This document shows, in pieces, positions 29,520-59,627 of a stretch of 64,000 nt of DNA; the stretch's first letter is position 1, and every line of letters begins with the position of its first letter. This stretch comes from Mustelus asterias (lineage: Eukaryota): assembly GCF_964213995.1 (NCBI RefSeq), contig NC_135804.1, positions 59,334,001 through 59,398,000 of the forward strand. Reading direction: 5' to 3'. The translations under genes were made by a program, and so were the position numbers. The notes under the pieces were generated by a model. The model had not been told where the DNA came from. It did not search any database and worked only from the letters and a program-made list of their open reading frames with translations.

Positions 29520-30356
29520 GTGAAGAAGGCATTCAGCATGCTTGGTTTCATCGGTCAGAACATTGAATACAGGAGTTGGGACGTCTTGTTGAAGTTATAC
29601 AAGACATCGGTAAGGCCACACTTGGAATACTGTGTGCAATTCTGGTCATAGAAAGGATATTATTAAACTAGAAAGAGTGCAGAAAAGATTTACTAGGATG
29701 CTATCATTTTCTATTTTTTGGGGCGTTTAAGAGATCCGTAGATAGGTTCATGGACGAAAAGAAATTGGTTTAGGTTGGAGGGTCACAGTTTTTTTTTTTT
29801 TTAACTGGTCGGTGCAACATCGTGGGCCGAAGGGCCTGTTCTGCGCTGTAATGTTCTATGTTCTATGTTCTATGTTCTATCGGGACTTGATGGATTGAGT
29901 TATAAGGAGAGGCTGAATAGACTGGGACTTTTTTCTCTGGAGCGTAGGAGGCTGAGGGGTGACCTTATAGAGGTCTATAAAATAATGAGGGGCATAGACA
30001 AGGTAGATAGTCAATATACCTTCCCAAAGGTAGGGGAGTCTAAAACTAGAGGGCCTAGGTTTAAGGTGAGAGGGGAGAGATACAAAAGTGTCCAGAGGGG
30101 CAAAGTTTTCACACATAGGGTGGTGAGTGTCTGGAATAAGCTGCCAGAGGTAGTAGTGGAGGCAGGTACAATTTTATCCTTTAAAAAGCATTTAGATAGT
30201 TACATGGGTACGATGGGTATAGAGGGATGTGGGCCAAATGCGGGCAATTGGGATTAGCTTAGGGGTTTCAAAAAAAAAGGGCAGCATGGACAAGTTGGGC
30301 CGAAGGGCCTGTTTCCATGCTGTAAACCTCTATGACTCTATGACTATGACTCTATG
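29520..30356 (+). mobile_element. CR1 3' fragment nested in CR1, itself containing a further CR1 3' tail at 29706-29876
   Basis: Interrupts the host xCVxFW motif; gactctat-repeat tail; inner piece has ctatc duplication and gttctat-repeat tail. Confidence 0.85.
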
Positions 30357-31166
30357 AATTCTGGTCGCCACATTCTTGGAAGGCTGTAGTTGCTTTGGAG
30401 TGGGTGCAAAGGAGATTCACCAGGGTGCTACCTGGGATGGAACTTTTAAGTTATGAAGAAAGGTTGGATAGACGTGGATTGTTTTTGTTGGAGCAGAGAA
30501 GACTGGACGGGGGAGAGGGGTGCACCTGATCGAGGTGTGTACGATTATGAGGGGCATAGTCAGAGTGGATAAGGAGCAGCTCTTCCCCTTAGTTGAAGGG
30601 TTAGTTATGAGGGAGCACAAATTCAAGGCGAGGGACAGGAGGTTTATGGGGGACGTGAGGAAAATCCTTTTACCCAGAGTGCGGTGACGGTTTGGAATGC
30701 ACTGCCTGGTAGCGTGGCAGAGGCGGGTTGCCTCATAAAATGGCCTGGATGAGCACTTGGAACGCCATGACATTCAAGGCTACGGGTCAAGTGCTGATAA
30801 ATGGGATTAGATGGGAAGTCAGGTATTTCGCACGTGTTGTTGCAGACTCGATGGACCGAAGGGCATCTTCTACGCTGTATGATTCGATGTTATCGCGTCA
30901 AGGGGGTGGGTAAAAACGCAAGCTGATGTTGTAAATCATCCTTTTTGAAACTCAGTTTTTTTTAACCCTCATTTTTAGTTGATCGTGCTGCAGGTGATTC
31001 CAAAAGCTGCCGGACGGTCACAAACGAAACGTATTTTTGAACAAGCGTAAAACAGGATGTCAAACGTCATTGCGATGGTTTTCAGATCAAATGTTCAGCA
31101 GACAATTCACACAGTGATAAACACACGGTCACTGCAGTCAGACATCAACTGAACCTTTATCACAGA

Positions 31167-31227
31167 ATGTTGTCCAATCTGATTCTTCTGTTAACGTCCC
31201 TGTCTCTCCTGAAGATCATTTCAACAG
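31167..31227 (+). CDS. Gene B exon 1, leader MLSNLILLLTSLSLLKIIST
   Basis: ATG, Leu-rich core and phase-1 donor ACAG|gtattg. Confidence 0.85.
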
Positions 31228-31420
31228 GTATTGGGATATTATCTACCCCAACTGTCTTATTAAAGAAATAAATATTTCATTGTTCCCAAGTCGATAGAAT
31301 TAAAGGCAGTTCGTCCTTCAAAACCTCTTCTGCATTTCCATGCAGAAACATGTTCTAAGATCTCTCCTTTCGCATTGAATACAGTTAATTAATACAAACT
31401 TTAAATATACTTTCTAACAG

Positions 31421-31741
31421 GTGCTCCAGGAACTTCGATCAGAGTGTCTCAAAGTCCTAAACAGGTAACTATATTGAGGGGGACAAACATCACCTTCTAC
31501 TGCATAATCCCCCTTTCTCATGACAATGTGGATGTCGAGGTGCTTTGGTGGAAACAGGGTGAGAATAAATATATGACAAAAGGAACCGATGACAGAAAAC
31601 GATTCGATTTCAAAATTAAAGGAGGTGGTTTATTTGAGCTGCGAAACGCGACTCTCCAGGACTCAGGAATCTATCACTGCGCAGTGATCCGTCAGGGAAA
31701 AAATAGTGGAAATGGAACAGGATCAAATTTAATTGTCTGCG
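31421..31741 (+). CDS. Gene B exon 2, Ig V-set domain with J-like G strand
   Basis: ctaacag| ... G|gtaagt; 321 nt; NITFYC, VLWWKQ, DSGIYHC, GNGTGSNLIVC. Confidence 0.93.
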
Positions 31742-32346
31742 GTAAGTGACTGAAATGGCCGGGAATATCAAGCACGCTGTTTTGCCATTGTTTTATTGTG
31801 CTGCCTTTGATATTGTAAAGCTCTGTGCACAACTGCCAATTACGCAGCGGAATGTGACATTTTATTTGCTGTGTTATTCCAAACTGCTGGAAATACTCAG
31901 CAATTCAGGGCATGTCTGCGAAGAGAGAGGCAAAGTTAAAGTCTCAGGTCCATCAACTTTTTGAGTAAAGTGTTACCTGATTCACCTCAAAATATAATTT
32001 TTAGATCAGATTTCTTAGTCCGAGGCTGGCCCACGTAGTCTCGATTCCCCAGCCAGAGGAAACAACCTCGCCGAATCTATCCTGTCAAGCACATTTACAA
32101 TCTTGAATGTTCCAATGACATCACTTCATTCTAACTTTTTCATTCTTCGCCTGTATGAGCTTCCATAAATCTATATAACCTTGCTTTTATTACCGGTGTC
32201 GGACAGATTGTTTTTCTCTTGCGGACGCTGTTGACTGATCTATTCTTACTAACATAAAGGGAAGCGAATGAGGATATAATTCGTCTCTCATTCCTTACTC
32301 TGAACATTTCTCCACCAACCTGACTTTCCCCATGTTCTGTTCGCAG

Positions 32347-32658
32347 CTACACCAACTCCGTTAAAGATTTTCGCTAAGCATCCCGCAAGGAATTCAACTA
32401 CGTTCCTGACTCTTGTGTGTCAGACGGCTGGATTTTACCCGGGTGATTTGACCCTCCTTTGGTATAAAAATGGCGTCAACATCACAACGGTGGGAAATCC
32501 GATCAAACGGCAGAACGCAGAAGGACTGTATGAAGTTTCCAGCTCTTTTGAAGAGCCGCACTTTGTGCGGAACGAAGCTGTTTACATCTGTTTGGTAACT
32601 CACATCTCCCTCCGGACTCCTGCCATTGCCATTCACACTGTTACCAACTCCTGCTCAG
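32347..32658 (+). CDS. Gene B exon 3, Ig C1-set domain
   Basis: tcgcag| ... CAG|gtatgt; 312 nt; LVCQTAGFYPGDLTLLWYKNG ... YICLVTH; ends NSCS with an extra Cys. Confidence 0.93.
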
Positions 32659-33965
32659 GTATGTGGCCAACAGGCCAAGAAACAATCTCCAAATTCAGTA
32701 AGGGGCATTTCTTGGAGTTTATTGGCACTGGCAATTTTAAAATAATATCCCGAAATATCCAACCTAAGGAAATCTTATGTTTTCAGTCAAGATATATTGA
32801 AACAAACATCTTGTCAAACCTAAGTAATTGTACTGACTTCCGACTGAATGGTGTATCACAGCAGGTTCTTAATTGTTTGAAAATGAAAAAAGGACAAGTG
32901 GGTTTTCTCTCCCATCCAATTATTTTACACTATGTACCTATTATTAGACATTGAGTTACCTCTTATTTTATTTTCCCAGTATCAGTTTTCCTCACACGAT
33001 TTTACAGAAAATGAAGCGTCAGTTTGTTTTATTGGCCTCATGTGAAAGTGTCAGAAGCCAGCCGTTTAGATAACTCCTATTGGGCTTGTTTCTGTCGAAA
33101 GCTAATTTCGACCCGTAACGTTAACTCTGTTTCTCTCCACAGATGCTGCCAGACCTACAGCAGTTTCTGTTTTTATTTTTCTTTATGCAGCGTTTTGGAA
33201 CGGGGAGGCATTTCATAAAATGCATTTCGACTTTAACTGTGATTTGCTTCCATTAAATGTAACTGAAACTCGTCTGATTAATGATCGCTATTTCCGTTTA
33301 ATTAATAAATAACCGAAATTTAATTTGAGGGTGAAAGGTAAGCATTACTTTGACAGCGATCTCCTTTCCGATGTAGTGACCGTCTGCAGTTAATAAACTG
33401 CAGACAATTGAGCATTTATTTTGTTGAATTGAAACAAAAACTACTCCTTTCAGCCTTGGCAAGTCCAAGTCTCACTAATTTGCCGCGAATTAATCAAATA
33501 AGAGTGAAAGAGGCAAAGAAAATTGAAGTTGCAGAAAACGTCCTTCTGTCAAACGGAATGTTAACCCTCTCACGCCAATGTTTAGAACATCCGAAACTGG
33601 TAATCTCCCTGGCAGATACTTATGGCCTTGTGCCATCCTTTGTGAAAGTAAGTTACTTTTACTTGCAGCTTATGGTGGTAAATGTCATGGCCCCTGGAGT
33701 TCTGGAGTTAAGTCTTTAATAGGAATACTATATGTAAAATTATTGGGAGACAAAGATGATCCCGGATGGCTGCTCGTTTGTAGTTTTTCCACATCAGATC
33801 TAGAAAAATGACTTGAGGTTATTTTTAAACGTCCTTCTCCTAGGGCTGCCGTACAAAGCTGCTGTAAATATGAGCAGTAGTTTACCCAATCGATTATGGT
33901 GGGAGCCAAGGATAGGTAATGCAGAAACAAATTAAAACACAGAACCAACCATTTTTTTCTTGCAG

Positions 33966-34076
33966 ATTCTGATGGTGGATATCATTACCTCTGGATTTCT
34001 AGGTGTGTCATGGGTGGATTGGTGTTTCTGATGCTTATAATCATCACTGGGGCGAAATTGATTTCGAAGAATAAAG
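33966..34076 (+). CDS. Gene B exon 4, transmembrane DSDGGYHYLWISRCVMGGLVFLMLIIITGAKLISKNK
   Basis: tttcttgcag| ... AAG|gtaacc; 111 nt, phase 1-1; hydrophobic helix with Arg near its N-terminal end and basic residues after it. Confidence 0.88.
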
Positions 34077-34149
34077 GTAACCCACAATTTTCATTTTGAG
34101 ATAAATCTTCAGGGCGATGGTAAGGGCGCCCTCACGGAATCCCACGTGT

Positions 34150-34600
34150 CTTTGGAATGCAGAAGGAGGCCTTTCGGCCCACCCAGATTTCATTGATTCG
34201 CTGAAAGTGCATTCTACCAAACCCCACTCCCTCCGTTTTCTCCGTAATTTTGCACGTTATTTCTTTTGAGATATCAATCTAATTCCCCTTCGAATACATC
34301 GATCGAACCTGCCTCCACCATCCTTTAAGGAAATTCGTTCCAGATTCCAACCACCCTTTGGGTGTACAAAATCCTCACGTAATTTCTATTACTTTGTCTA
34401 TTATTTTGAAACTGTGCTCTGTAGTTCTTGATGTACATCTGAGGGAGAAGAGTTTCTCACTGATTGCCCTGTCCATAACCCCCCAGGACGTGGGGGGTAT
34501 AAACTTTCCTCTCAGCCATCTATTTTCCAAGGAAAACAGACCCAATTTAAACAATCTATGCTCATATCTTGTTTTCTTAGAACAATTCTTGTGAATTTCC
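34150..34600 (-). mobile_element. Old CR1 3' fragment in a gene B intron
   Basis: gttccagattccaaccaccctttgggtg and cctctcagccatctattttccaagg are reverse CR1 3' motifs. Confidence 0.6.
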
Positions 34601-36024
34601 TGAGCAGCTCCACACGATAGCTATTCAATTAATATTTAATTGAATTAATAATAATTGAAGCAAAAAAAAAGAAATCTTTTGCTCAAACTCCAGCTGAATT
34701 GAGAATGTTATAGTGAAAGAATTGCCACAAATTGTAAAGAATCATATGGTTTGGACAACACCAATGACGTTTTTAAGTAAAATGCTGTCAACGTTCTTTC
34801 CAGTCGCTGTACGCGAATGTTGATGAATTCATCGATTCGGATTTCCAACAAAGCCCGGAAAATTTAATACCTCAAAATCACTGCTGATAGTAATCCTACT
34901 TGATCCGCCTCGAAATGTGGATTGTTCACTTCAATGTAGAATGCAATTCTTTGTTATGGCATCTGAAGACACTTCACACACTGGTCTACCTAAAAATTTA
35001 TTCCACATATATTTCTCTGTGGAAAGAAAACGATCTCCAGGTATTATTGTAAAATGATAATTTTTATTTTGTTTTACCAATGATCTTTGTACTGGCACTC
35101 ACAGTTACACATGTCATACTATATTTGTAGGGAAATGTCGTGCTTATATTACTGCAGCAATCGTTCAAAGATGTGGAGTCGTAATGCCGAGCAAATGGGG
35201 TAAAACTTGGAATGGGATTGTGAGAGTTTAAATTCAGTTAAAATATATATATACAACATTTGATCAGTAAAAGATTTGTCATTTGAGTGATTAGCTCAAA
35301 TCAGTAACAATACTGGACCGTGAGCTGGTAAATTCTTATAATTTATCCAAGAAGAGTATTTAGATTTATATAAATGTTGTGGAAATGGAAATTGTTTACT
35401 ACGACTTATTTCATAAAAGGTCTCTATCTCTCTTTCATGTCCATTAAAATATTGTTTTGATAAGCATTTGGTACTTCTTGAGATGGAGGTGCAGGTGGTT
35501 AAAGAAATACTGAAAATTACATTTGGTAGTTTCATCAACACACAGCTCTGTTCTAATTACATACAATTATCGGAGCGTTGCTTTTGCGAGTTGGCATTGC
35601 ATGTCTCAGATGTTGAAACTGCCTCGAATTGTGCTCTATCTGTAACACTGTAGTGTAGTGAAAATCGACAGAACGAAATGTCAGTTACAATAGGCGCCCG
35701 AATTTCCGGACTTAACATTGACACACCAATGTGTATATTGACCGTGGTTGATGCAATTTTTAGGTGATGAAGCATAACACACTTGTGAGAGTATTGAGAA
35801 GATTAACACGTTGTAGCGACGCGCCGCTTGTGTTTTTGCTATATTAACAATTGTTGCGAAATATGTACCGCATGGGCGGGTTTATAAAACTAAATAAAGA
35901 AAATGCTCATTCGCTCATCTCGCTCCGGTAATGCTTTTTTAAATTTAGACGTTAATGATTACAACATTAAAATGTACCTCGTGTTACCTCTCAATATAAT
36001 GCTAGCGATTCTGCTTACTTGCAG

Positions 36025-36074
36025 AAACAGACAATGTTCGGATTAATCGGACATTCTACACCATGTTTACCATT
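36025..36074 (+). CDS. Gene B putative cytoplasmic exon (end and frame uncertain)
   Basis: Acceptor ttgcag|aaacag and the downstream tttaccattgtaaactt are conserved with gene C 53794-53843 while flanks are more diverged. Confidence 0.35.
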
Positions 36075-37974
36075 GTAAACTTTTCTAACTCACGAACAAA
36101 TGGAAGCTTCAGCCGGCTCGCTTTAAGACCCATGCATTTTCCTAATCTTTTAATTTCTAATATTATGCTACATGTAGGAGTATGTTCTTAAACACATTTT
36201 TAGGTTGTGTGTTTATTTCTCGATACATATCTGTTAGCACACATCTGCTAAACTCGTGACACTTGCCTTTGTGTAACGCACTGAAATGTAATGATGATCA
36301 AATTATAGTTAAGTAGGACTGCAGGTAACTGGGAGCGCAACCGCCTGAAAGTTCTTTTTCATGTCACTCATCATCCTGATTTGGAAACACATCGCCGTTT
36401 ATTCATCGTCGCTGGGTCAACATCCTGGAACTACCTCCATAACAGCTCTGTGGGCATGCTGGGGCTGCAGTGGTTTCCTATGACAGCTCACTGTCACCTT
36501 CTCAGGAGTTGCTAGCGATGGGCAGTAAATGCTGGCCGAGAAAGAGACACCCAAAGCTAAAATCAGATGAATTTTGAAGTCTGCAATCAATATATAGAAT
36601 CCCTATAGTGCAGAAGGTGGGCAAACGGCCCATCAAGTCTGCTTCGACTCTCTGACAGGGCATCCCACAGACAGTCACCCAAGGTCAGAATCGAACCTGG
36701 TCTCCGGGCATTGTGTCAACCACTGTGCCAGCGTTCCGCCTTTTCTCAAATGACAAAAAAATGTTGGAATTGTGCAAATTTTATTCAATCGCCTTTCGAT
36801 TACAACAAATTTTGCGAATGCCAACTAATGTTGCCCAAGCACTGTATTGTGTGGAAAAATACCTGATGGGATGTGTTGTTGTTCAGCTTCATCCGCAGCG
36901 TCACCCTTGCATATGTTCGAAGGTAATTGTGATGTCACATTCGGGGAAGTTCCCTGAATATATTCATGCTCAAGAATCCCTTTAAGCAACAGTTTAACAT
37001 GTATAAATAACGATTCAAAGCGGCTGTCAATGTATCCATAATTCCCTGTTTCACACTCAGGTGTCTTGTATGGTTTGGAAGATTGCCCTTTTCTTTTAAG
37101 AACGCTCTAAAATTTGCTGCGGTCGTGACAATGGAAAAGTTCGTGCTCGCAAAGAGAAGCGAATACTGCTCAACAGAGACGCATGAGAACGTGCCCGCAG
37201 AGTGGAGTGAAAAAATACACAGACGGCAAATGCGATGACAGTATGCACGCCCAGTGAAAAGATATTTGTCCCAGAGAATTAAAATACGTACCCTATGAGA
37301 AAGACGAACATATCAAAGATAATCGATAGCCGTTTTGGAAAACAAAAATATGGCAACATTCATTCTTTCATTCTGTCTTAATTCATCGCGTACTCGCTGA
37401 ATTTCCCACTGATCACTATCAGAAGCTGTTTACTTCATGATTTTGCCGTCAAAGCGAGCTATGCATTTCAGACCGCAGATGTAAACTTGCCAGGGAATGG
37501 ACTGGGTTCTGTTTATCCAGTCCATCATTATTAGACCTAAATATCAGCACATCGGCTGTATAGATGGCGTCATCCAAACTAACCGAGGTGAACTAAATTT
37601 TAGAGACTCCATTGACTGCTTTAATGCATATGGATAAAATGACATGGACAGAACGCATAATTTTCAAACAATAGGAGCAACGCAGCATAGAGAGTGCAGC
37701 CTATCTAACTGTAAGGCGATGGCCTACGCAGCTGAGATGCAGAGAAGCTTCAACCAGCAGGGCTTTTTGTCATGCCTGTCGACTAAGCCAGAAACCAAAA
37801 CAGCATATGTATCAACTTGTAGCCACTAGTTGTACATACGCAATATCCTATACTGCTGTCAAGTAAACCTGCATCCTGGTGAAAATGGTTCTACGTGTTG
37901 CAAATAAAAGTTGTATTCAGCTTTATTTACAAATATGCAGGATAAGCCGCGCATCATAGAAATACGCTGATAGG

Positions 37975-38605
37975 ATCATAGAATTTCTACAGTGCAGAAG
38001 GCGATTCGGCCCATCGACTCTGTACAGACTCAGCATTTTTCCAAGGTCACCGCCACCCCACCACCCCCCCCCCCCCAACCCCTGCCCTATCCCCATGACC
38101 CCACGCATTTATCACAGCCAATCCACCTAACGCACACATCTTGAGACAATGAGGAGCAATACATTCGGGCCAATCCATCTAATCAGCTCATCACTGGACT
38201 GGGCGACAAATTGGCACAGTGGTTAACACTGCTGTCGCACAGCGCCAGGGATCAGGGTTCGATTCCAGGCTTGGTGTCACAGTTTGTACGTTCTCCCCGT
38301 GGGTTTCCTCTGGGTGCTCTGGTTTCCTTCCACAATCGGAAAGATGTGCTGGTTAGGCATGGCCAATGCTTAATTCTTCGAACAGGCGTCAAAGTGTGGC
38401 GACCCCAGGATTTTCACAGTAATTTCATTGCAGCGTCAATGTAAGCCGACTGTGACTAATAAATAAACTTTACTTTTTAAACTTGTGGGAGGAAAGTGGT
38501 GCGCCCAGAAGAATCCCACACAGACACGGGGGAACGTACAAACTCCATACATACAGTCACCCAGGTCCGGAAATGAAACAGGCCCCTGGCGCTGCGAGAC
38601 AGCAG
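37975..38605. mobile_element. Cluster of three HE1-type SINE pieces (minus 37975-38198, plus 38203-38475, minus 38483-38605)
   Basis: ggcacagtggttaacactgctgtcgcacagcgccaggga head and V-core in both orientations. Confidence 0.8.
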
Positions 38606-38769
38606 AAACATAACTAGAAACTAGAAGCAGGAGCAGGCTTTCGACCCTTGAGCCTGCTTTGCCATTCATGATGATCATCAAATTCAATATCCTGATCCCA
38701 ACATTCCCCTATATTCCTTGATCTCTTTAGCCCCAAGGGCTATATCTAATTTATTCCTGAAATTACATC

Positions 38770-41540
38770 CGTTGCTCGGTGTTTATTATAGACCCCCAGA
38801 TAGTCAGCGGGAAATTGAACAGCAAATATATGTGCAATTCGCAGAGGGGTATAAAAATGATAAGAGAGTAATTATATCAGGTGATTTCAACTTTCCCAAC
38901 ATTAATTGGGATAGCTATCATGTTAAGGGCTTAGGTGGAGTAGAGTTCTTAAAATATATTCAGGAAAACTTCTTAGGTCAATATGTAAAGGATTCAACGG
39001 GAAGGAGCTATGTTGGACTTAATTCGGGGGAATGAAGCCAGACAAGTGGTTGATGTGCTGGCGGGAGAGCATTTTGGTGATTATGACCACAACATGGTCC
39101 AATTCAAAGTTGTTATGGACAAAGACATTGACATGTTGCAGATTAGGTTTTCTATTGGGGGAGAGTAGATTTTAACAAAATTAGGAAGGATCTGGCCAAG
39201 GTAGATAGGAACGAGTTACTAGTAGGGAAATCTACAGAAGAGCAGTGGGAGTATCCAAAGATGGAATGGAGAGGTTGCAGGCCCAATATGTTCCCTCTGG
39301 GGTAACAGGAAGGTGTAACAAACCCAGAGAACCACGGATGACCAGAGACATTCAGAATACAATGAGAAGGAAAATAGAGGCTTTTAATAAGTATAAGGGG
39401 AATAAGCCTGCGGAGGCATTAGTGGAGTACAGAAAGTGCAGGCTGGACCTTAAAAGATCAATAACAAGAGCAAAAAGGGGATATGAGAAAGCTCTGGCTG
39501 GTAAAAGAAGGGAAAATCCTAAGATATTCTATAAGTATATCAATGGGAAGAGGATAACCAGGGAAAGAGTAGGGCCCATTAGGGACCAAGGGGGGAATCT
39601 GTGGATGAAAGCAGAGGACATTGGTAGGGTGTTAAATGAGTACTTCACATCTATCTTCACCCATGAAAATGAGGAGGTAGTGATGGAACTCGGAGAGAAA
39701 GACAGAGGCGCAAGAGAAAATTATCACAGGGAAGGACAAGGTATTGGATGTATCGTGGGCTGAAAAGTGTATAAAACTCCAGGTCCGGCTGAATTGTGTC
39801 TCACGTTGTTGTGGGAGGCAAGGGAGGAAATCGCAGGGGCTCTGACCCAAATTTCTAATTCCTCCCTGGCTACCGGGGAGGTCATGCTGTGGAGATGCCG
39901 GCGTTGGACTGGGGTAAACACAGTAAGAGTTGTAAGAACACCAGGTTAAAGTCCAACAGATTTATTTGGTAGCAAATGCCATTAGCTTTCGAAAGCTAAT
40001 GGCATTTGCTACCAAATAAACCTGTTGGACTTTAACCTGATGTTGTTAAAACTCTTACCGGGGAGGTGCCAGAGGACTGGAGAACAGCTAATGTGGTCCC
40101 ACTATTTAAGAAAGTTTGTAGAGACAAGCCAGGGAATGATGGACCAGTAAGTCTTACGTCTGTGGTTGGGAAACTACTGGGGAAGATTCTGAAGGAGAGA
40201 ATCTACCTCCATTTGGAGAGGCAAGGTTTGATCGGGGATAATCAGCATGGCTATGACAGAGGGAGGCCATGCTTAACACATTTGCTTGAATTTTTTGAGC
40301 ATGTAACCAAGTGTGTGGATGAGAGTAGTACGGTTGATGTAGTTTGCATGGATTTCAGCAAAGCCTTTGGCAAAGTCCCACATGGGAGACTTATTAAGAA
40401 GACTAATGCACATGGGATACAGTGCGATTTGACAAGGTGGATTCATAATTGGCTTAGCGGTAGGAGATAGAGAGTGGTGACAGGTGGCTGCTTTAGTGAT
40501 TGGAGGCCAGTGGCCAGTGGCGTAACATAGGGATCCGTGCTGGGGCTCTATTGTTCGTAATTTATATAAATGACATAGATGACTATATGGGAGGTAGGAT
40601 CAGTAAGTTTGCCTATGACGCAAATATTGGCCGGGTAGTTAACAGAGTGTCTTGGGTGACAGTAAGATATCTATGAGATGGTCAAATAGGCGGATAAGTG
40701 GCAGATGGAATTTAACCCTGAAAAGGGTGAGGTGATGCACTTTGGAAGGAGTAATTTGACAAGGAAGTATGCGATGAAAGGTCTGACACTAGGAATTTTT
40801 GAAGAACAAAGGGAGCTTGGCGTGTTTGTCCATAGATCTCTGAAGGCGGAAAGACAGGTTAATAGGGTGGTGAAAAAGGTATATGACACACGCCTTTATC
40901 AGTTGGGGTATAGATTACAAAGTAGAGAGGTCATGATGGAGTCGTATAGAACTTTGGTGAGGCCACAGCTGGAGTACTGTGTGCAGTTCTGGTGGCTACA
41001 TTATAGGAAGGACGTGAATGTACTGGAGGGGGTGCAGATGCGATTTACCAGGATGCTACCTGGGATGGAACATTTACGTTATGAAGAGTGGTTGGATAAG
41101 CTTGGGTGGTTTTCGTTGGAGCAGAGAAGACTAAGGAGCGACCTGATTGAGGTGTTCATGATTATGAGGGGCATGGACAGGGTGGATAGGGAGCAGCTGT
41201 TCCCCTTAGTTGAAGAGTCAGCTTCGAGGGGACACAAGTTAAAAGTGAGGGGTGGGAGATTTAGGGGGGTTTGAGAAAGAACCTTTTTACTCAGAGGGTG
41301 GTGACTGTCTGGAAAGTATTGCCTGGAATGGTGGTGAAGGCGGGATGCCTCACATCCTTTAACAAGTACCTGGATGTGTACTTGGCAGGCCATAACATTC
41401 AAGGCTATGGGCCAAATGCTGGCAAGTTGGATTAGGTGGGCAGGCCACTGCATTTCATGCGTCGGTGCAGACTCGATGGGCCAAATGGCCGCTTCTGCAC
41501 TGTAGTATTCTGTGATTCTGTTACTCTGTGATTCTGTGAA
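38770..41540 (+). mobile_element. 5'-truncated CR1 ORF2 (APE-RT) with ttctgtga-repeat tail
   Basis: GVYYRPP, GDFNFPNINW, PEDWRTANVVPLFKK, MEFNPEK. Confidence 0.92.
39883..40055. mobile_element. Penelope-like fold-back insertion in CR1
   Basis: Palindrome centred on ctttc|gaaag (39990/39991); target duplication taccggggaggt at 39871-39882 and 40056-40067. Confidence 0.87.
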
Positions 41541-42490
41541 TGACACAACGTTTTGGTCTCAACTACTTCCTGTGGTAGTGAATTCCACACATTCACCACT
41601 CTCTGGGTGAAGATAGTTCTCCTCACCTCAGTTATAAATGGTTTACCCCTTACCCTCAAACTATGACCTCTAGTTCTGGACTAACCCACGACCACGAACA
41701 TTCTTTCTGAATCTACCCTGTCTAACCATGTTGGAATCTTGAAGGTTTCAATGAGATGCTCTCTCACTCTTCTAAACTCCAATGAACACACTCATAACCT
41801 ACTTAATCCTTCCTCACATGACAGATCTGTCATCCTAGTGATCAGCCTGGTAAACATTTACTGTGCTCCCTCTATAGCAAGGACATCGTTCCTTAGATAA
41901 GGACACCGAAACTGCACATAATACTCCAGATGTGGCCACACCACGCGCTATACAATTGTACCAATAAATGTCTATTCTTATACTCAAATCTCCTCGCTAT
42001 GAAGGCCAACATGCCATTTGACTTCTTTACTGCCTGCTATACCTGCACCGAGGATACCAAGATCTCGTTAAGCATCCAAATCTCTCAATTTACAACTATT
42101 CAAGTAATAATCTGTCTTCCTATTATTGCGACTAAAGTTGATAAGCTTCACATTTATCCACATTGCACTGCATCTGCCATATATATACCCACGCACTCAA
42201 CCTGTCCAAATCACGCTGAAGCATCTCTGCGTCGTCCTCGCAGCTCAACCTCCCACCCAACTTTGTATCACCTTCAACTATGGAGATAATACATTTAGTT
42301 CACACTTTCAAATCAATAATAAATGATAGGAACAGTTGGAGCCTAGCAGAGATCCTTGCGGTGTCCCACTGGACACTACCTGACAATCAGAACAAGACCC
42401 ACTAATGTCAATGTTTTGCTTCATGTATGCTAACGAGCTTTCTATCCATCTCAGGATGTTACCTGCAATACCCATGGGCTTTAACTTTAC
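41541..42490 (-). mobile_element. CR1 3' fragment
   Basis: MRVRGKPFITEVRRTIFTQRVVNVWNSLPQ on the minus strand. Confidence 0.8.
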
Positions 42491-42492
42491 AT

Positions 42493-43735
42493 TTGATTTG
42501 ATTGATTTGATTTGATTTGATTTATTATTGTCACATGTACTAACACACAGTGAAAAGTATTGTTTCTTGCACGCTATACAGACAAAAACATACCGTTCAT
42601 AGAGAAGGAAATGAGAGCGTGCAGAATGTAGTGTTACAGTTATAGCGAGAGAAAGATCAACTTAATGCAAGGTAAGTCCATTCAAAAGTTTGACAGCAGC
42701 AGGGAAGAAGCCGTTCTTGAGTCGGTTGGTACATGACCTCAGAGTTTTATATCTTTTTCCGGAAGAAAGAATCTGGAAGAGAGAATGTCTGGTGTGCGTG
42801 GGGTCCTTAATCGTGGTGGCTGCTTTGCCGAGGCAGCAGGAAGTGTAGACAGAGTCAATGGATGGGAGGCTGGTTTGCGTGATGGATTGGGTTACATTCA
42901 TGATCTTTTGTAGTTCCTTGCGGTCTTGGGCAGAGCAGGAGCCATACCAAGCTGTGATACAACCAGAAAGAATGCTTTCTATGGTGCATCTGTAAAAGGT
43001 GGTGAGAGTTGTAGCTAACATGCCAAATTTCCTTAATCTTCTGAGAAAGTAGAGGCGTTGGTGGGCTTTCTTAACTGTAGTGTCGGCATGGGGGATCAGG
43101 ACAGGTTGGTGGTGATCTGGACACCTAAAATCTTGAAGCTCTCAACTCTTTCTACTTCGTCTCCGTTGATGTAGACAGGGGCATGTTCTCCTTTACACTT
43201 CCTGAAGTCGATGCCAATCTCTTTCATTTTGTTGACAGTGAGGGAGAGATTATTGTTGCTGCACCAGTTCACCAGATTCTCTATCTCATTTCTGTACTCT
43301 GTCTGGTCATGGTTTGAGATCCGACCCACTACGGTGGTGTCGTCAGCAAACTTGAAAATCGAATGCAATGGAATTTGGCCACACAGTCATAGCTGTATAA
43401 GGAGTATAGTAGGGGCTGAGAACACAGCCTTGTGGGGCACCGGTGTTGAAGATGAGCGTGGAGGAAATGTTGTTGCCTATCCTTACTGATTGTGGTCTGT
43501 GAGTTAGAAAGTTCAGGATCCAGTCGCAGAGGGTGATGCCGAGGCCCAGGCCACAGAGTTTGGAGATGAGTTTCGTGGGAATAATGGTGTTGAAGGCTGA
43601 GCTGTAGTCAATAAATAGGTGTCTGACATAAGTGTCCTTCTTATCTAGGTGTTCCAGGGTTGAGTGCAGGGCCAGGGAAATGGCGTCTGCTTTGGACCAT
43701 CTGCGGCGGTCGGCAAAATGTAGTGGATCCAGGTA
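42493..43735 (-). mobile_element. Rex1/Babar-clade LINE, 5'-truncated
   Basis: [70 protein letters not shown]; aaatc-repeat tail. Confidence 0.9.
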
Positions 43736-43739
43736 ATCT

Positions 43740-44460
43740 GCTTTATGACACAATGCCGAAAGCCTACTGAAACTCTAAATAAGCCACATCCACTGGTTCT
43801 CCTCGGTCAACTCTACGAGCTCCAGCCTCGAAGCATTCCAATTTTCCCTTTGTAAATCCATGCTGACTTAACTGTGCGAAGTGAGGGATATGTGAGGGGC
43901 TGAAACATGGATTTCGTGGAAAGATGGACAGGAATTTGAAGGGGCAAACACGTCCACGGACCTTGGAGAGGCAAATATGTTGGAAATTGGATAGTGGTTT
44001 GCAAGAATGAAGGGGGAAAGGATTGATCGTTTGAGGAGACGGATTATGTCAGCCTCTTTGCAGGAGTGAGTTATCCTACATAGAGGGAGAACGGGCAACA
44101 CTATCAGCTAAAACAGATAGCAGGAATAGAGGATTGTGTTATCATCAGTTTAGTCAGAATAGAGTCAAGACTGTAGGAGGTTGGTTTCATGATGAACTCT
44201 AAGGCAGCAAGTGGAGGGGCTGGAAGGAAAGTGGAGAATAATGTGATTTTAGGGCTGGGTGTGCATTCCTTAGAGGACATTTGCAGAAATGGGGAAATGA
44301 ATGCGAAGGAGACAGCTGAGCAGATGTTTTCAAGTTTAGTAACTGAAAAGGTCATGCAATCCTCGTATTTGTTGTAGGGGATGGTGTATGAGAGGAGATA
44401 AAAGTTTATGGAGACGGTTTGCAGTCGACAAAAATGCCAGAGGTCAGTCAACATTGCATT
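43740..44460 (-). mobile_element. Decayed L2-like RT fragment
   Basis: KPTSYSLDSILTKL and ANHYPISNIF (cf. NYRPISNL) remnants. Confidence 0.55.
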
Positions 44461-44764
44461 TTGGGTGATTCACGAAAATAGAATAATTTTAGTACACTGT
44501 AGGAGGACCCGTTGGTTCTTTATGTGGCCCATAGAGATCAGGCGATCAACAAACAAACCAGTTTAATTATATTGCTTTGGATCAATTTGATAATTATTGC
44601 CCAGTTGCAATCAGAGGGTATAAATAACCCATGTTATTTCAAGCTAATAAGAGTTTGATACGGATACAGTTGCATTGACAGCTGACCATCTAATTATATT
44701 GACGTAGTGTAGAGTTTGACTGTATATCTAACGATGCGTATGCGTGCCAGCTCAAAAACAAAGT

Positions 44765-45326
44765 GGACCCTATTTTACCATTTTGATTCTAGGTGCTGGG
44801 CTTGAAACTGGGAGTGTTTCAGATCCGACTTTTGAGACGCCTCCATACGCACGCTGCCTGCAAAAATATCAGCGAGTCCGATTCTCGCTGCCTAAGCCTG
44901 TGGGTGGGCATTAATGCACCTAAACCCCACGCCCCCCTCCGCCCCCCCCCCCCCCCCCCCCACCTCTCAAGCAGAGAGCCGTGGGACGCTCGGCACCTAC
45001 TTCCTCACTAAATGTAGCGCCCGAATTAGACTTTCATGGAGCATGTCTGTTTCGCGCCGATTCTGGATGCGCGAACGAGGTGGTAAAGGGAGAAGTGCCA
45101 GTCGAGTTTGGCGTGCTGCCCATTAAGTCAATTTAAATGCATGCAAATGCGTTTCAATGTCAGTCGGGCCCGTTTTGGGCACGGTACTGATTGCGGCCAT
45201 TTTCGAGCCTTGGTTAAGGGGAAACTGGTGCGGAGGCAGGTGCGGATCGTGCTACCTGCCTAACGCCTGACTTTACCAAGTTTTTGCGCCTGAAACTAGA
45301 TGCAATGCGATGGTAAAATCGAGCCC
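44765..45326. mobile_element. Non-autonomous DNA transposon (MITE) with imperfect terminal inverted repeats
   Basis: Left ggaccctattttaccat and right atggtaaaatcgagccc; GC-rich non-coding interior; abuts the left edge of duplication copy 2. Confidence 0.65.
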
Positions 45327-45328
45327 GA

Positions 45329-48300
45329 TATCTTCGAGGGAGCATTGAATAAAGGTTTGTGGGTAGAACTTAGGAATAAAAAATAAAGTCATATTTCTAG
45401 CTGTTTTTTATGAACACCCAGATAGTCAGTTGGAAATTGAGGGGCTAAAATGAGCTCAATATGCAAAGGTGAGTAAAAATAATAACAAAAAGGTAATTAT
45501 AGTAGGTGATATCAACTTTCCCAACATTAACTGGGATAAACATAGCGTAAAGAGTTTGACTGGAGTGGATTTCTTGAAATGTGTAGAGGAGAACCTGAGG
45601 CCAATACGTAGAGCGTCCAACAAGGGAAGGAGCTTTGCTGGGCCCAATTCTGGAGAATGAAGCCGAACAGGTGTTTGAGGTGGTGGATGGGTGGGGGATG
45701 GTGGGGGTGGTGAGGGTTGGGGGGGGGGGGGGGGCGGGGGGCGGGGGCGGGGCGGGATCATTTCAGTGATAGTGACCATAACATGGTACAATTTACTCTT
45801 GATATGGACAAAGAATCATACAACTTGCAAAAAATGTTTTTGGTTTGGGGGAGAGAGCAGAGTTTAATGAAATGAGGCAGAATCTTGCCAAGGTAGAAAA
45901 GGAACAGCTACTATTAGGGAAATCTACAGAAGTGCAATGGGGCGTTCAATAAAGAAATGGGAGGGGGAGGTGGTACAAGCCGAACACGTTCATTCTAGGG
46001 TGTTAAGAAAGAATAGCAACCCAAAGAACCATCGATGACCAGATATATTCAGGACAAGATGCTAAGGAAAATAAAAGCTTTTAGCAGATACAAGGCGACC
46101 AAATCAGCAGAGGCATTAGTGAAGTACAGAACGTGCAGGGCAGACTGTAAGTAAGCAATTAGAAAAGTTAAAAAGGGATATGTGAGAGCTGTGGCTTGTA
46201 AAAGTAGGGAAAATCCCTACATATTCTCTAAATATATCAATGGGAAGAGGTTAACCAGGCGAAGAGTAGGGTCCATTCTGGAGCAAGGGGCCAATGTATG
46301 CGTGGAGCAAGAGGATATTGGCAGAGTGTTCAACCGATACTTCACATCTGTTTTCACCAAGAGAATTGGGATGAAGATATGGAGCACAGAGGGAGAGGCT
46401 GTGAGGTTCTTGAGCAAATTGACATAGGGAAAAACAAGGTACTGGAGGAATTGGCAGGCTTGAATGGGGACAAATCGCCAGGTCCAGATGAATTGTGCCC
46501 CAGGCATCCGTGGCAGGCAGGAGAGGAGGCTTCCGAGGTTCTGCCCCAATTTTGAGTTCCTCTCTGGCCACGGAGGAAGTGCCAGAGAACTGGAGAAGAA
46601 TGAATGTGGTTCAAAGGGTTGTAGAGGTAGGCCACGTAAGCACAGACCAGTGGGTCATAGGTCAGTCATAGGGAAACTGCTGGAGAAAATTCTGAAGGAG
46701 AGCATCTATCTCTCCTTTAGAGAGGCAAGGCTTGATTACAGATAGTCAGCATGGCTTTGTCAGAGGGAGGTCATGCCTACCAAAGCTGATTGACTTTTTT
46801 GAGGAGGTGATTAAGTTCTAGAGTGCAGTTGATGTAGTTTATTTTTATTTAAGCAAAGCGTTTGACAAAGTCCCACATGGGAGACTTATAAAGAAATTAA
46901 ATGGAATACAGGGTACATTGATAAAATGAATTCAAAATTGGCTCAATTTAAGAGGCCGAGTGTGGTGACAGAAGGCTGCTTTAATGACTGGAAGCCAGTG
47001 TCCAGTGGCGTATCACAGGTCCCCTACTATTCACCATTTATATAAACAACATAGATGACTATGTGGGGGGTAAGATTAATAAGTTTGTGCATAACACAGA
47101 CATTGGCCTGATGCTTGACAGTGAGGTAGAGTGTCTTGTGCTATAGGGAGATGTAGATGGGATACTCAATGAGCAGATATGTAGCAGATGGAATTTAACC
47201 CTGAAAAGTGTGAGGTGATACACTTTGGAAAGAATAATTGGACAAGAAGTACTCAATGAATGGCACGACACTAGGAAGTTCTGTAAAACAAAAGGACCAT
47301 GGGGTGTTTGTCCAGAGATCTCGGAAACTGGAAGCACATGTTCATAGAGTGTTGAAAAAGTCATATCAGACACTTGCATTTATCAATCGAGGCATACATC
47401 ACAAAAGCAAGGAAGTGATGTTGGAGTTGTATAGAATTTTAGTGAGGCCACAGCTGGACTACTGTGTGCAGTTCTGGTCGCCACATTCTTGGAAGGCTGT
47501 GATTTATCTGGAGAGGGTGCAGAGGAGATTCACCAGTCTGCTGCCTGGGATGGAACATTTAAGTTATGAAGAGAGGTTGGACCAGAGGAGACTGGGCGGG
47601 GGAGGGGGAAGGGGGTGCACCTGATCGAGTTGTATGAGTTTAAGAGGGGCATAGACAGAATGGATAAGGAGCAGCTCTTCCCCTCAGTTGAAGGGTTAAT
47701 CATGAGGGAGCACAAATTCAAGGGGAGGGACAGGAGGTTTATGGGGGATGTGAGGAGAAACCTTTTTATCCGGAGTGTAGGGACGGTTTAGACTGCGCTG
47801 TCTGGTAGCAGGGTAGAGGTGAGTTGCCTCACAACCTTTAAAAAGTACCTGGATGAGCACTTGGAACGTCATGACGTTCAAGGCTATGGGCCAAGTGCTG
47901 ATAAATGGGATTAGGAGAGAGGTCAGGTGTTTCATATGTGTTGGTGCAGACTCGATGGGCCGAACGGCATCTTCTGCGCTGTATGATTCTATGTTATTGC
48001 GTCAAGGGGGCGGCGGGGAGAAGGGGGGGGGGGCGGGGTGCTGGCGGGTGGATATAAAAACAAGCTGATGTTGTAAATGTTCCTTCTTGAAACTCCGTTT
48101 TTTAAACCCTTATTTTTAGTTGATCGTGCTGCAGGTGCGGTCACAGACGAAACGTATTTTTGAACAAACAGGTACAGGGTGTCAAACGTCATTGCGATGG
48201 TTTTCAGATCAAATATTCAGCAGACAATTCACACAGTGATAAACACACGGTCACTGCAGTCAGACATCAACTGAACCTTTATCACGGAATGTTGTCGAAT

Positions 48301-49820
48301 GTGATCCTTCTGTTCACGTTCCTGTCTCTCCCGAAGGTCATTTCAGCGAGTATTGGGATATTCTCTACCCAAACTGTCTCATTAAACAAGCAAATATTTT
48401 ATTGTTCCCACGTCAATTGAATTAAAAGTCGTTCGTCCGTCCGTCAAAATCTCCGGTCTCTGTCTTCCAGACAGAAACATATTCCAAAGTCTCTCCTTTC
48501 ACACTGAATACTGTTACTTAATACAAACCTTCAATATATTTTCTAACAAGTGCTCCGGGAGCTTCGATCAACGCGTCTCAAAGTCCTAAACAGATAACTA
48601 TATTGAGAGGGACAAACATCACTTTCTATTGCAGAATTCCCCTTTCTCATGACAATGTGGATGTCGAGGTGCGTTACTGGAAACAGGGTGAGAATAAATA
48701 TATGACAAATGGAACCGATGACAGAAAACGATTCGATTTCAAAACTAAAGGAGGTGATTTATTTGAGCTGCGAAACGCGACTCTCCAGGACTCAGGAATC
48801 TATGACTGCGCAGTGTTCCGCCAGGGGGAAAATAGTGGAAATGGAACAGGATCCAGCTTAACTGTCTGCGGTAAATGACTGGAATGACCAAGAACATCAA
48901 GCACTCGATTTTATCACTGTTTCATTGTGCTGCCTTTGATGCTGTAAAGCTCTGTGCTCAGCTGCTAATTAGGCAGCGGAATGTGACATCTTATTTGCTG
49001 TGTTATTCAAAACTGCTGGAAATACACAGCCATTCAGGGCATGTCTACGAAGAGAGACGCAAAGTTACAGTCTCAGATCTGTTACCTTTTTGAGTAAAAT
49101 GTTACTTGATTCATTACAAAATGTAATTTTTACATCAGATTTCTCATCTTGAGGTTGGTCCACCGTATTCTAGATTCCCCAGCCGGAGGAAGCAACCTCG
49201 CCGAGTCTACCCTGCCAGGTACATTTACAATCATGTATGTTCCACTGAAATCATCTCATTCTAACCTTTTCACTCTTCGCCTGTATGAGCTTCCATAAAT
49301 CTATATAACCTTGCTTTTATTACCGGTGTCGGACAGATTGTTTTTCACTTGGGGACGCTGCTGACTGACCTATTTTTACCAACATAAAGGGAAGCGAATG
49401 GGGATATAATTCTTCTGTCATTCCTTACTCTGAACGTCTCTCCACTAACCTGATTTTCTCCATATTTTGTTCGCAGCTGCACCAACTCCGTTAAAGCTTT
49501 CCCTAAGCATCCTGCAAGCAATTCATCTACGTTCCTGACTCGTGTGTGTCAGACGCCTGGGTTTTACCCGAGTGATTTGACTCTCCTTTGGTATAATGAT
49601 GGTGTCAACATCACAACGGTGGTTAATCCGATCAAGCAGCAGAACAGTGAACGACTGTATGAAGTTTCCAGCTCTTTAGAGGAGCCGCAATCTGTGCAGA
49701 ACGAAACTGTTTACATCTGTTTGGTAACTCAGATCTCCCTCCGGCCTTCGGCCATTGCCACTCACATTGTTACCAACTCCTGCCCAGGTATGAGGCCAAT
49801 AGGCCAATAAGTGAAATTAG
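45329..49820 (+). repeat. Segmental duplication copy 2 (CR1 45329-47992 plus gene C ectodomain exons)
   Basis: Same CR1 copy without the nested insertions at 28467 and 29520; promoter and intron sequence nearly identical to gene B. Confidence 0.9.
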
Positions 49821-52817
49821 TAGTTTTTTTTAAATCAGAAAAGGGTCTTTCTTGGAAATTATTGACCTCAATTATCATGAAGATAATTTTAAAATAAAAT
49901 ATCGGTAAATATAAAATGAAAGAGAAGATTGAATGGTTCTGTGTGAAGTTTTATTGGCCCAAACTTGTTGTCAAAGCGAAGTAGTATCATTGTTGTCCTC
50001 CTGCCTTTTGAAGCTCGGCAGGTTCCAATTTTTTCAAAAGACAAAGTTGCAAGCGGCCGAAACGTTCCATCTATTTATTTTACTTATAATGCTTATTATT
50101 AAACATTCGCATTTGGCCACTTCTCATACTGATTTTATATTTTCCAGGACCAGTTTTCCTCACACCGGCTGCAGAACCAGGAGTGGCAGTTTGTTTGGTT
50201 TGCCCCACTGTGAATGGGTCCAAAGTTAGTCTTGTGGGCAGGTCGCAATGCCTCTTCATGACCCAGCGGTTAGGAGCAAAAACGCCCTTTTGAAGTATTT
50301 CATTTTGCTTGCAGCCCAGATCTGCAGTATAACTTATTGCGATTCATAGGTTAATTAATTAACATGTTCTGTTATTAGCAAATAACCATGCATTGCTTTC
50401 CCTTCCTACTGCTTCTTACTTCAGTTAACATACTCCACAACATTGAATTTGCACATTAAGGGACTGAATAAAGTCCATATTTCTCATAGCAGTGGCACGT
50501 TTCGTTTCATTGAATTACTAATATTTTATTAAATAATAGTGTAAAAGAAAAATATAAGTCAAATGCAAGAACAAGCCTATTGATCCATCGAAATGTTCTC
50601 GAAGGGAATTTTCATCGCGCCCCAAATTGGTACTCTCCCTCGCAGGTAATTCTGGTGTTGTGCTATCCTTTGTGAGAATGAATTATTTTGACATCAATCT
50701 AATATGGTAAATTGCGAATACTTTGAAGTAATGCTCTCCTCCGAAACATATCACCCAGTTGCAGAAAACATGAGCACTAGTTTAACCAACAAATTAATTC
50801 GAGGTAAAAGCAAATTACTGCGAATGCTGGAATCTGAAACAAAAACAGAAAATACTGGGAAATCTTAGCAGGTCTGACAGCTTCTGTACTGAGAGAATAT
50901 TAATTCGAGGTTTCTTTTTAGGTAGCGTCCGAAATAAATTCTCAGCATCATTTTAATTTTGCAGAGCCTGATGGTAAATATCATTACATTTGGATTTCTG
51001 GATGTACGGTGGGTGGATTGGCTTTTCTGATATTCATGGTCATAATTGGGACGAGAGTCTGTCTGAAGAATACAGGTAGGTACCCCTTTATGCAAATCTT
51101 CAGGGGAACGGAGAGATTGTGCTCGGCGGCGTTGTGAGCATAAGGATTGCGCAATTGTCACTTATTGGATGCAAGAAAAACCGAAATCGTGAGCGGCAAA
51201 TGGGACTGATTTTATAACGTAGTCGTTGTCTCAAAATTAGGATTTAATGAATCTGATTATTTGTACATTACATTTGGTAATGCCCGCATTCTGGCAGATG
51301 GTAAATCCTGTCAGTGTCCAGATGGAGAAGATTTATAATTCACTTAAAATGTGAAAATCTGGCATTGGCAAAATATGACAAATCTGAGGACTGGCACAAA
51401 ATATCAAGTAACTGATTAATGTCCTTTAGAGACGGAAACAGATTCAACGCGGTCTGAACTATGTGTGACTCCAGTCCGACAGAAGTATGGTCAATTCTTA
51501 AATAGCCTCTGAAGTGGCCACGCAAGCCACTTAGTCATATCTGGCTAACGACAGCCGGAGGTGGACAACAAGTATGCTCGTCTGCGGCACCGACGTCTTG
51601 AGAATGAATGAAGCAAGATAGCAGTTTGACTTTTTCGACATGGTTAATATTCTCACATAGTTCCATAAACAACATGGTCGAGCCGCCGCTTTACAGGCTA
51701 AAGGAACAAATTTATTCCGAGTTTCTACCTGATGCATTACCCCGATAATGAATAATCACTCCGTATCTCTTTGAACGAACGTTTGGGTTTTATCATTAAT
51801 GATCAAAATTGTATTCCGTTGTGCGGTGGACTAGAACACCCCACAGTTCGATTGTTCCCTTGTATGACGCACTGCCTTGTCCATGTAGTTTAACATCCAA
51901 CATTAAACCATTGTTAATTTGTATGAAATGGACATTTTATGTGCTCGGCCAACCAAATACTTGGTCGTTTTCAGTTTCATCATTAGTAATATCACTAGAA
52001 TCCAGAGAGCTTTTTTTTTCTCATCTCCGCTGTGGCCTGCGTCCGTGTGTGTTTCTGCGCGTGTTTCTGTGAGTGTCTGTGTTTGCGTAATTGTGTGCGT
52101 GCGTTTTTATCCAAGTGTGTGTTAAACATTATCTAGCCTCTAAAAATACTTTTGAAGGCACAACTATGGAAAGTGATCGTTACAGATCGTAACCATTGAA
52201 AGAAATTCATTTGCTTATTTTCCAGGTAAACAGGAAAGTGCAACAATAGTGAACATTGGTGACGAGCGGGTGGGTTATTTTTTATATAAATGTTGTTACT
52301 TCGTCGCGGTCCTGCTTAGCCACGTTATGAAGGCACTTCCCTTGGCCAACAAGTCCCGGTGTGGAGTTCAAAGCGGGAATTTCTGGTGCAGCCAAAAGAG
52401 TCTCTTTGTATGGTAGCACCTTTCAACAGTCATGCCGTCACACAGCAAGGCATGTGCTCCTCTGCCCGACTTCGAATCTAACTATTTAAGATTCTTCAGT
52501 TTCTCCCCTAATTATGAACATCTTCAAACTTTTTTTACTTTCTACATTTACATTTTTTAAATTTTCTACATGGACTTAACCGTCCAAACTACAATGACTA
52601 TCAGTATTCCGCTGCAGGGTTTCACATTCGCCACACTCTCCTACCTATTACATAATAGCTTCAAAACTGAATGCTAATCCCTGAATTCTGATGAATCAAT
52701 GACTCACATGCCTCATAAAGTGGAACAGCACCAAATTAGGCTGTGCAACACGAGTCATAAAGTATTTTAATTCTAGAAGCTTGCTTTTATAATGTGCTTT
52801 CTTTTCTACCTTACCGT

Positions 52818-59528: not shown

Positions 59529-59627
59529 GTATTTACTATCGTTCACTCCTTGTCTTTACGTCTGTGTCTCGCTCTCGCTCTGTCTTTTTTTTAATAAGTA
59601 AAACGAATGTTCATTTTTTTTTCATAG

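Follow-up and report, generated by a model that had tools for sequence, protein, structure and literature searches.

A candidate activating receptor gene and its likely inhibitory counterpart in a V-C1 gene cluster of the shark Mustelus asterias

Introduction

Does an arginine in the transmembrane (TM) segment of a shark immunoglobulin-type receptor mark the activating half of a receptor pair, and if so, which gene supplies the other half? The question is raised by a 64,000-nucleotide stretch of the smooth-hound Mustelus asterias (the window, G000:C4:59,334,001-59,398,000), in which four genes, A to D, lie in tandem. All four combine a V exon that is not split with a C1-set exon and a phase-1 TM exon. 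An earlier note on this DNA had pointed to an Arg in the TM segment of gene B where genes C and D have Gly, and this difference is indeed present (codons AGG at 34001-34003, GGA at 51000-51002 and GGG at 63393-63395, respectively). Our analysis, based on sequence comparison, suggests that gene B is probably the activating half of a paired receptor and that its likely inhibitory counterpart is gene I, which is located at G000:C4:59,208,468 (NCBI model P0005), 157 kb upstream of gene B.

The transmembrane arginine and short tail of gene B

The exons of gene B are as follows.

31167..31227, plus strand: leader exon, matching NCBI model P0001
31421..31741, plus strand: unsplit V(J) exon, V-set, ending GNGTGSNLIV; 98.8% nucleotide identity with gene I
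32347..32658, plus strand: C1-set exon; 98.4% nucleotide identity with gene I
33966..34076, plus strand: TM exon, AG/GT borders, phase 1; the Arg (codon 34001-34003) is close to the outer helix end
34804..34823, plus strand: terminal coding exon (VAVREC, stop) without a tyrosine motif; splicing predicted, from NCBI model P0001

The TM exon contains YHYLWISRCVMGGLVFLMLIII, in which the Arg is the fifth residue counted from the Leu of LWISR and lies, on a rough scale, in the outer half of the TM segment, as it does in NCR3/NKp30. The product of gene B is identical to the M. asterias model P0001 and ends ten residues past the TM segment. Six of these residues come from the terminal exon, and a search revealed no exon for an immunoreceptor tyrosine-based inhibitory motif (ITIM).

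There are six B-type genes in the M. asterias genome, namely four Arg genes, gene I and gene C. The same short terminal exon is present in each of the four Arg genes, one of which has a stop in C1, and the stop of the VAVREC exon is kept in 4/4 of them. The TM Arg of gene B is not a chance residue, because it recurs in the short-tailed B-type copies of M. asterias (4/4) and in the catshark models P0002, P0006 and P0008, and because it is bound to one column. Among 87 distinct family TMs, Arg or Lys is found 15 times at the column of the gene B Arg and at most twice at every other column from -3 to +15, with none at all in columns +4 to +15.

Gene C as a probable decayed copy

The earlier note had regarded gene C as a non-adaptor or inhibitory-type twin of gene B. 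Its features are listed below.

48289..48349, plus strand: leader exon
48548..48870, plus strand: V exon, with AA in place of the acceptor AG at 48548-48549; read-derived contigs X1 and X2 cover 48256-48668 with 0 differences
49477..49787, plus strand: C1 exon of 311 nt, with a 1-nt deletion near its start that causes a frameshift and a stop; the X2 contig covers 49317-50006 with 0 differences and 0 gaps
50965..51075, plus strand: TM exon, AG/GT borders, phase 1; Gly codon 51000-51002; 96.4% identity to the gene I TM exon
52226..52269, plus strand: first tail exon (KQESATIVNIGDER)
52311..52401, no strand: deletion site with about 2.7 kb missing, where gene I has both ITIM exons and its last exon

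The TM exon of gene C, which contains YHYIWISGCTVGGLAFLIFMVII with the Gly codon GGA, is intact. Nevertheless, gene C looks like a pseudogene without an ITIM exon. It is no working twin of gene B, because its V acceptor reads AA, its C1 exon is frameshifted and its ITIM exons are lost, and the earlier assignment is therefore not supported. A nucleotide search of the window for the ITIM exons and the last exon of gene I found neither, and a genome search with the gene I ITIM tail gave three matches, none of them near gene C. Assembly error was considered as the source of the lesions and rejected, as the X1 and X2 contigs cross both sites without differences; these two contigs represent one sample, possibly the assembled one, and X3 and X4 barely cover gene C. 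Gene C is probably a decayed copy of the inhibitory gene that gene I represents.

A pair of genes B and C could still be real if gene C were expressed through a cryptic acceptor together with skipping of C1, giving a product that is either inhibitory or dead in signalling. In-frame AG dinucleotides do occur at 48489 and 48561, and leader, V and TM exons, the last of these undamaged, would form an open frame once C1 is skipped. However, two rescue events would be required and the product would still have no ITIMs. Moreover, the C1 of gene C carries a Leu to Arg change in the B strand, and its end branch (0.12-0.14) is the longest among the B-type ectodomains, the others having 0.01-0.03. We consider such an expression of gene C highly improbable.

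Gene I as the likely partner of gene B

Sequence comparison indicates that the inhibitory counterpart of gene B is likely to be gene I and not gene C. Nucleotide identity between B and I is 98.8% in the V exon and 98.4% in the C1 exon but 71.2% in the TM exon, whereas the TM exon of I is 96.4% identical to that of C. The ectodomains of B and I differ by five residues. Gene I has the C-type Gly TM and a tail with two copies of VTYAAV and one of TTYAQI, that is, ITIM and immunoreceptor tyrosine-based switch motif (ITSM) sequences. Both of its ITIM exons were found in the genome with AG/GT borders, and the ITIM tail used as a genome query matched strongly at C4:59,213,169 and 59,213,871 and weakly at 68.6 Mb. 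Near-identical ectodomains, an ITIM/ITSM tail with an uncharged TM on one side (I), a charged TM with a short tail on the other (B), and clustered genes with homogenised ectodomains are hallmarks of paired receptors, and all of them are found here.

The ITIM exon of gene I (L031:5170-5990) is a tandem duplicate, the two copies being 99% identical and 702 bp apart, and this duplication doubles the ITIM count relative to catshark P0007.

The ectodomain likeness of B and I is part of a longer tract.

3967..32681, no strand: tract 95-98.6% identical to G000:C4:59,176,300-59,209,426, ending just past the gene B C1 exon

The shared tract of B and I is at least 33 kb long and includes gene A, repeats and intergenic DNA. 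Beyond C1 the gene I copy turns to sequence of C type (84-89% identity), and the match to the C/D side as a whole is at 80-89%. Because the match to the B side stops just after C1 and is followed by C/D-side sequence, gene I is a hybrid, B-like through C1 and C-like from intron 3 onward. The hybrid probably arose when a B-type and a C-type gene underwent unequal exchange.

Arginine and tail type across the family

Whether the Arg follows tail type was examined in a protein set of 219 rows, from which 68 were dropped (<100 bits on the family profile) and a further 41 because the filter did not find a TM. The 110 remaining rows, some without a species label, gave 91 distinct TMs, and 18/91 have Arg at the column of gene B. 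A tail of at least 60 residues follows 1/18 Arg TMs and 52/73 of the others (Fisher p 3e-7), and the median tail length is 28 and 89 residues, respectively. Any ITIM/ITSM pattern is present in 4/18 Arg tails against 44/73 others (p 0.007), and the family-type ITIM pattern, which was picked after inspection of the data, in 1/18 against 37/73. The filter did not favour this result, because five of the dropped rows (P0043, P0044, P0103, P0112 and P0122) have visible Arg TMs with short tails.

Kinship was taken into account with a tree of 76 ectodomains, 37 from M. asterias and 39 from named proteins of other sharks, rays and elephant shark. Arg and non-Arg states change 18 times on this tree, compared with a mean of 21.7 (range 16-25) for shuffled labels. 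ITIM labels of M. asterias genes were assigned manually, on the basis of searches for exons 4.5-15 kb downstream or of stops within the TM exon, and gene C was excluded from the pair count. Of 14 independent pairs on starred branches, 11.2 carry the ITIM only in the non-Arg partner, 0.6 show the reverse and 2.2 have no difference between the partners (sign test, p between 0.0002 and 0.02, median 0.003). A preliminary tree, in which fewer tails had been scored, yielded 9 pairs (p 0.016). For the 27 M. asterias genes scored for both features, the counts are 12 with Arg and no ITIM, 1 with Arg and ITIM, 12 with ITIM and no Arg, and 2 with neither. The Arg therefore does follow tail type across paralogues and species, which was the check that the earlier note had proposed (1/18 against 52/73 long tails; 14 pairs). 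Together with the six-residue terminal exon and no ITIM exon, this correlation supports the earlier suggestion that gene B is an activating member, as far as sequence features can indicate it.

Two near-identical genes, L054 (C4:69,428k) and L055 (C4:68,097k), differ at the TM column, with Arg in the first and Met in the second. The Arg gene corresponds to P0104 and has an ITIM tail, a combination reminiscent of KIR2DL4.

Homogenised ectodomains and the age of the transmembrane types

The catshark has a comparable pair, with P0002/P0008 (Arg, short tail GNEA) on one side and P0007 (Gly, ITIM and ITSM) on the other. Ectodomains cluster by species, and a clade of Arg ectodomains across species is rejected by the approximately unbiased (AU) test (p-AU 3e-6). 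In the 36-residue TM exon, on the other hand, the Arg genes of smooth-hound and catshark group together (92/92), and a smooth-hound clade is rejected (p 0.024).

Homogenisation restricted to exons is observed in pairs other than B/I. In the oppositely oriented pairs L043/L044, L048/L047, L081/L049 and L083/L084, V and C1 exons are 96-98% identical, whereas intron blocks are about 70-77% identical in local alignments of the three pairs where they are alignable. For L035/L036, identity is 98% in V and 84% in C1. Passages of PMC5112662 describe exon-restricted conversion between paired Xenopus Ceacam genes in opposite orientation, and the shark pairs match this pattern. The gene B V exon differs from its paralogues by 3-7 non-synonymous and 1-3 synonymous codons, and no sign of diversifying selection on B-type V exons could be established from so few codon differences.

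Several observations weigh against our interpretation of gene B and its pairing, some on the evolutionary side and some on the signalling side. When the Arg column is removed, the grouping of Arg TMs of both species falls below 80 support (AU p 0.042), and for this reason the age of the TM lineages is weakly supported. The near-identity of B and I may have arisen neutrally, as a consequence of segmental exchange, because the exchange involves a long tract that includes intergenic DNA. On the signalling side, the short tail of gene B is based on the NCBI model and on ITIM exons not being found by search, and tails outside the M. asterias genome come from automatic gene models. In a rough insertion scan, the Arg occupies position 1-3 of the best window of 21-23 residues and falls outside the best window of 19 residues, and the modelled position of the Arg may thus be interfacial. 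The Arg copy at C4:59,804k has a stop in C1, 29/73 non-Arg TMs are without any ITIM pattern, and P0104/L054 joins an Arg TM to a long ITIM tail.

It is conceivable, at a probability that we put clearly below even, that B is activating and I inhibitory while recent segmental recombination has made them nearly identical by accident, without selective maintenance. The length of the common tract (at least 33 kb, with gene A and repeats) is in line with such an accident. However, the tract stops just past the ectodomain, the catshark pair has been homogenised independently, and other pairs have exon-restricted identity. An accident of this kind alters the evolutionary step only and not the signalling reading.

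A different possibility is that gene B encodes a non-signalling decoy or adhesion receptor, with its Arg at the head-group interface and no adaptor bound. The Arg does lie at the margin of the best predicted TM window, and tail-less members without Arg occur (L056, L058 and P0034). We nevertheless regard a decoy as unlikely, given that the Arg is limited to one TM column (15 against at most 2 elsewhere, -3 to +15), that it accompanies loss of ITIMs in independent pairs, and that its position agrees with that in FcRγ-coupled receptors as described in parts of PMC13107469 and PMC8102735.

Proposed signalling and adaptor use

Gene B encodes a V-C1 membrane receptor that has an Arg in the TM segment and a tail predicted to be about ten residues long and devoid of tyrosine motifs. 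If the receptor is activating, the Arg would dock on the two Asp residues of an adaptor dimer, FcRγ or CD3ζ, and the receptor would assemble with γγ, ζζ or γζ and signal through the immunoreceptor tyrosine-based activation motifs of the adaptor. The ITIM/ITSM tail of gene I would recruit SHP-1/2 phosphatases, and both receptors would bind one common ligand. Possibly, selection by pathogens that make use of the inhibitory receptor favours an activating receptor that matches it, and thereby keeps the ectodomains homogenised. The same on/off arrangement appears to recur in several subfamilies of the cluster and in other sharks, rays and chimaera. FcRγ-like (C275:471,050) and CD3ζ-like (C17:72,917,226) TM exons are present in the M. 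asterias genome, and both retain the Cys and the Asp.

This mode of coupling has precedents. In passages of PMC13107469, binding of CD89 to FcRγ is attributed to an Arg close to the top of its TM segment and is said to require both Asp residues, and the same mode is assumed there for NKp30 and NKp46. According to parts of PMC8102735, KIR2DL4 has its Arg at TM position 4 and FcRγ its Asp at position 3, and activating KIRs of macaques, in which ectodomain and TM/tail exons have been recombined, bind FcRγ. Activation through another adaptor, of DAP10 or DAP12 type, is also conceivable, since the TM Arg of NKG2D works with DAP10 (PMC13107469, in part). However, the NKG2D Arg that pairs with DAP10 is located in the middle of the membrane (same passages) and partners of DAP12 have a central Lys (passages of PMC13107469 and PMC8102735), while the Arg of gene B is near the outer end, which makes such an adaptor very unlikely.

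Comparison with known receptor families

The SIRP family (SIRPα/SIRPβ1/SIRPγ) resembles the shark genes in having a V(J)-type domain followed by C1-set sequence, and in combining inhibitory members with tandem ITIM/ITSM tails and short-tailed members with a charged TM. SIRPα is the second-best match of P0001 among PDB sequences (E 2e-14), and the Atlas feature matches of P0007 at 0.96 include SIRPα clusters; antibody, UrIg2 and MHC C1 domains score at a similar level. SIRP ectodomains are V-C1-C1, SIRPβ1 uses a central Lys with DAP12, and the SIRP genes are linked to NSFL1C. The shark genes, in contrast, have one C1 exon per gene and not two, the Arg of gene B lies towards the outer end of the TM segment, no central Lys occurs in the 87 family TMs, and the family consists of tens of genes. 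SEP-domain genes, the candidates for NSFL1C, are located on contigs C7 and C20, with none on C4.

NKp30/NCR3 shares with gene B an unsplit VJ-type V exon and an Arg in the upper half of the TM segment (passages of PMC13107469 for the Arg). In contrast to the single V domain of NKp30, gene B has a V and a C1-set exon, and its V domain gave no NKp30 match among PDB sequences at E 0.01. All 140 matches to class I of the major histocompatibility complex (MHC) are on C8, whereas the family is on C4, so that the MHC linkage of NKp30 is not seen here. An identity of gene B as NCR3/NKp30 was rejected on account of the extra C1, the location on C4 rather than the MHC contig, and the lack of an NKp30 match. 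Nearly all of the 140 class I exon matches belong to a very large expansion at C8:21.6-43.4 Mb, and a genome-wide search for MHC class II gave no match anywhere. An NKp30/NCR3-like V exon is present on the MHC class I contig (L093:8716-9039, minus strand; G000:C8:~7,146,716-7,147,039); its top four PDB matches are NKp30, with a possible TM exon some 6 kb downstream of it. The V-domain fold was predicted with a pLDDT of 84.7. Fold searches returned generic V/I-set matches only and did not separate V domains, and a V profile search of the PDB was dominated by multi-domain proteins.

On/off pairs with common ectodomains are also formed by LILRA/LILRB, CD89, the activating KIRs of macaques, CEACAM1/CEACAM3 and the Xenopus Ceacams. 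The LILR, CD89, KIR and CEACAM pairs have C2- or V-only ectodomains, while the shark ectodomain is V(J)-C1 and the host is a cartilaginous fish. Hybrid KIRs of macaques, formed by recombination of ectodomain and TM/tail exons (PMC8102735, in part), are similar in this respect to gene I. By analogy, the likeness to LILR, KIR, SIRP and CEACAM is one of working alike and not of membership.

Non-rearranging PRARP/VJC1 genes have reportedly been described by Fu et al. 2019 and Ohta et al. 2019, and Arg/ITIM pairing in a multigene family is not known to us from these genes. A non-rearranging VJ exon followed by C1 is what these shark genes have, and the PRARP/VJC1 layout, compared by description only, is the same VJ-C1 arrangement (mentioned as non-rearranging, VJ-C1, in passages of PMC10751288).

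Genes A and D and the surrounding cluster

The two remaining genes of the window are as follows.

14161..16116, plus strand: gene A, with V at 14161-14481 and C1 at 15094-15405
59474..63462, plus strand: gene D, with leader, V, C1 and Gly TM; its last exon is beyond the window at about C4:59,399,270

Gene A has lost 101 bp at about 16069, and with them the acceptor of its TM exon and that half of the exon which encodes the Arg; its paralogue at C4:59,186,787 is intact and retains the Arg TM. The TM exon of gene D (63352-63462; AG/GT borders, phase 1) reads IFGCAG with the Gly codon GGG, and its last exon, just past the window, has one ITIM (LTYAEV) followed by a premature TAG; the middle tail exon was not traced. 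The earlier description of gene D as inhibitory-type agrees with the Gly TM and this ITIM, but the proposed B-like ligand face is not supported, the V domain being only 44% identical to that of gene B.

With the V exon of gene B as a genome query, at least 60 matches were obtained, at least 58 of them on C4, so that the cluster comprises no fewer than 58 V exons. NCBI has given its proteins the automatic names SIRP-like, tapasin-like and Ig light chain-like. In a scan of 19 stretches of C4 beside or within the cluster, no extra family exons and no synteny marker were found, and by eye these consist of repeats and retroelements. Reverse-transcriptase fragments of long interspersed nuclear elements, also recognised by eye, are seen in intergenic DNA of the window at 3900-5900, 27400-30250 and 38800-47600, and open frames like those of long-terminal-repeat retroelements in the downstream flank (L105 and L108).

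Gly-TM and Arg-TM genes of two subfamilies flank the window in opposite orientation, at C4:58.79-58.96 Mb (minus) and 59.53-59.95 Mb (plus), and several of their Arg-type TM exons have a stop within the exon. Other broken family members are L075 (C4:~59,420k), with frameshifts, L032, with a stop in C1, and L045/L046, with an apparent frameshift in the TM. A further subfamily (L062; P0040, P0089, P0116, P0119 and P0161) combines a WWIYLC TM with a juxtamembrane stretch rich in Cys and with a long tail, in which most members are without an ITIM. A second Arg-TM type, ending in ...II(V)DH/NH (L044-L050, L066 and L084; P0024, P0084 and P0087), is common to smooth-hound and elephant shark and is joined to different ectodomain subfamilies; it is possibly an old activating TM module.

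Significance

A literature search, covering passages of PMC12272517, PMC12227049, PMC10751288, PMC3964593 and PMC11599192, gave no description of this V-C1 family in cartilaginous fish, and an earlier mention under the name of NCR3 or VJC1 is possible. PMC12227049 lists a nurse-shark NCR3 set under GenBank MT914154-914161. Paired receptors of mammals and frogs are well known, and the genes of the present family in cartilaginous fish have so far stood under automatic names. Elephant shark has an Arg/ITIM pair as well (P0087/P0074), which would date the on/off signalling logic to before the split of holocephalans and elasmobranchs.

In a more far-reaching joint reading, which we consider improbable, the cluster would be the counterpart of KIR/LILR in cartilaginous fish, with self or MHC-like ligands, non-rearranging VJ-C1 chains and an Arg-Asp-Asp contact of TCRα type with ζ/γ. 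The age of the complex would then be at least 400 million years, and if this joint reading were true, the cluster would be a living model of the receptor stock that gave rise to antigen receptors.

The family provides concrete candidates for on/off receptors of shark natural killer or myeloid cells, and its near-identical natural pairs, together with the located shark adaptor genes, make both adaptor use and ligand directly testable.

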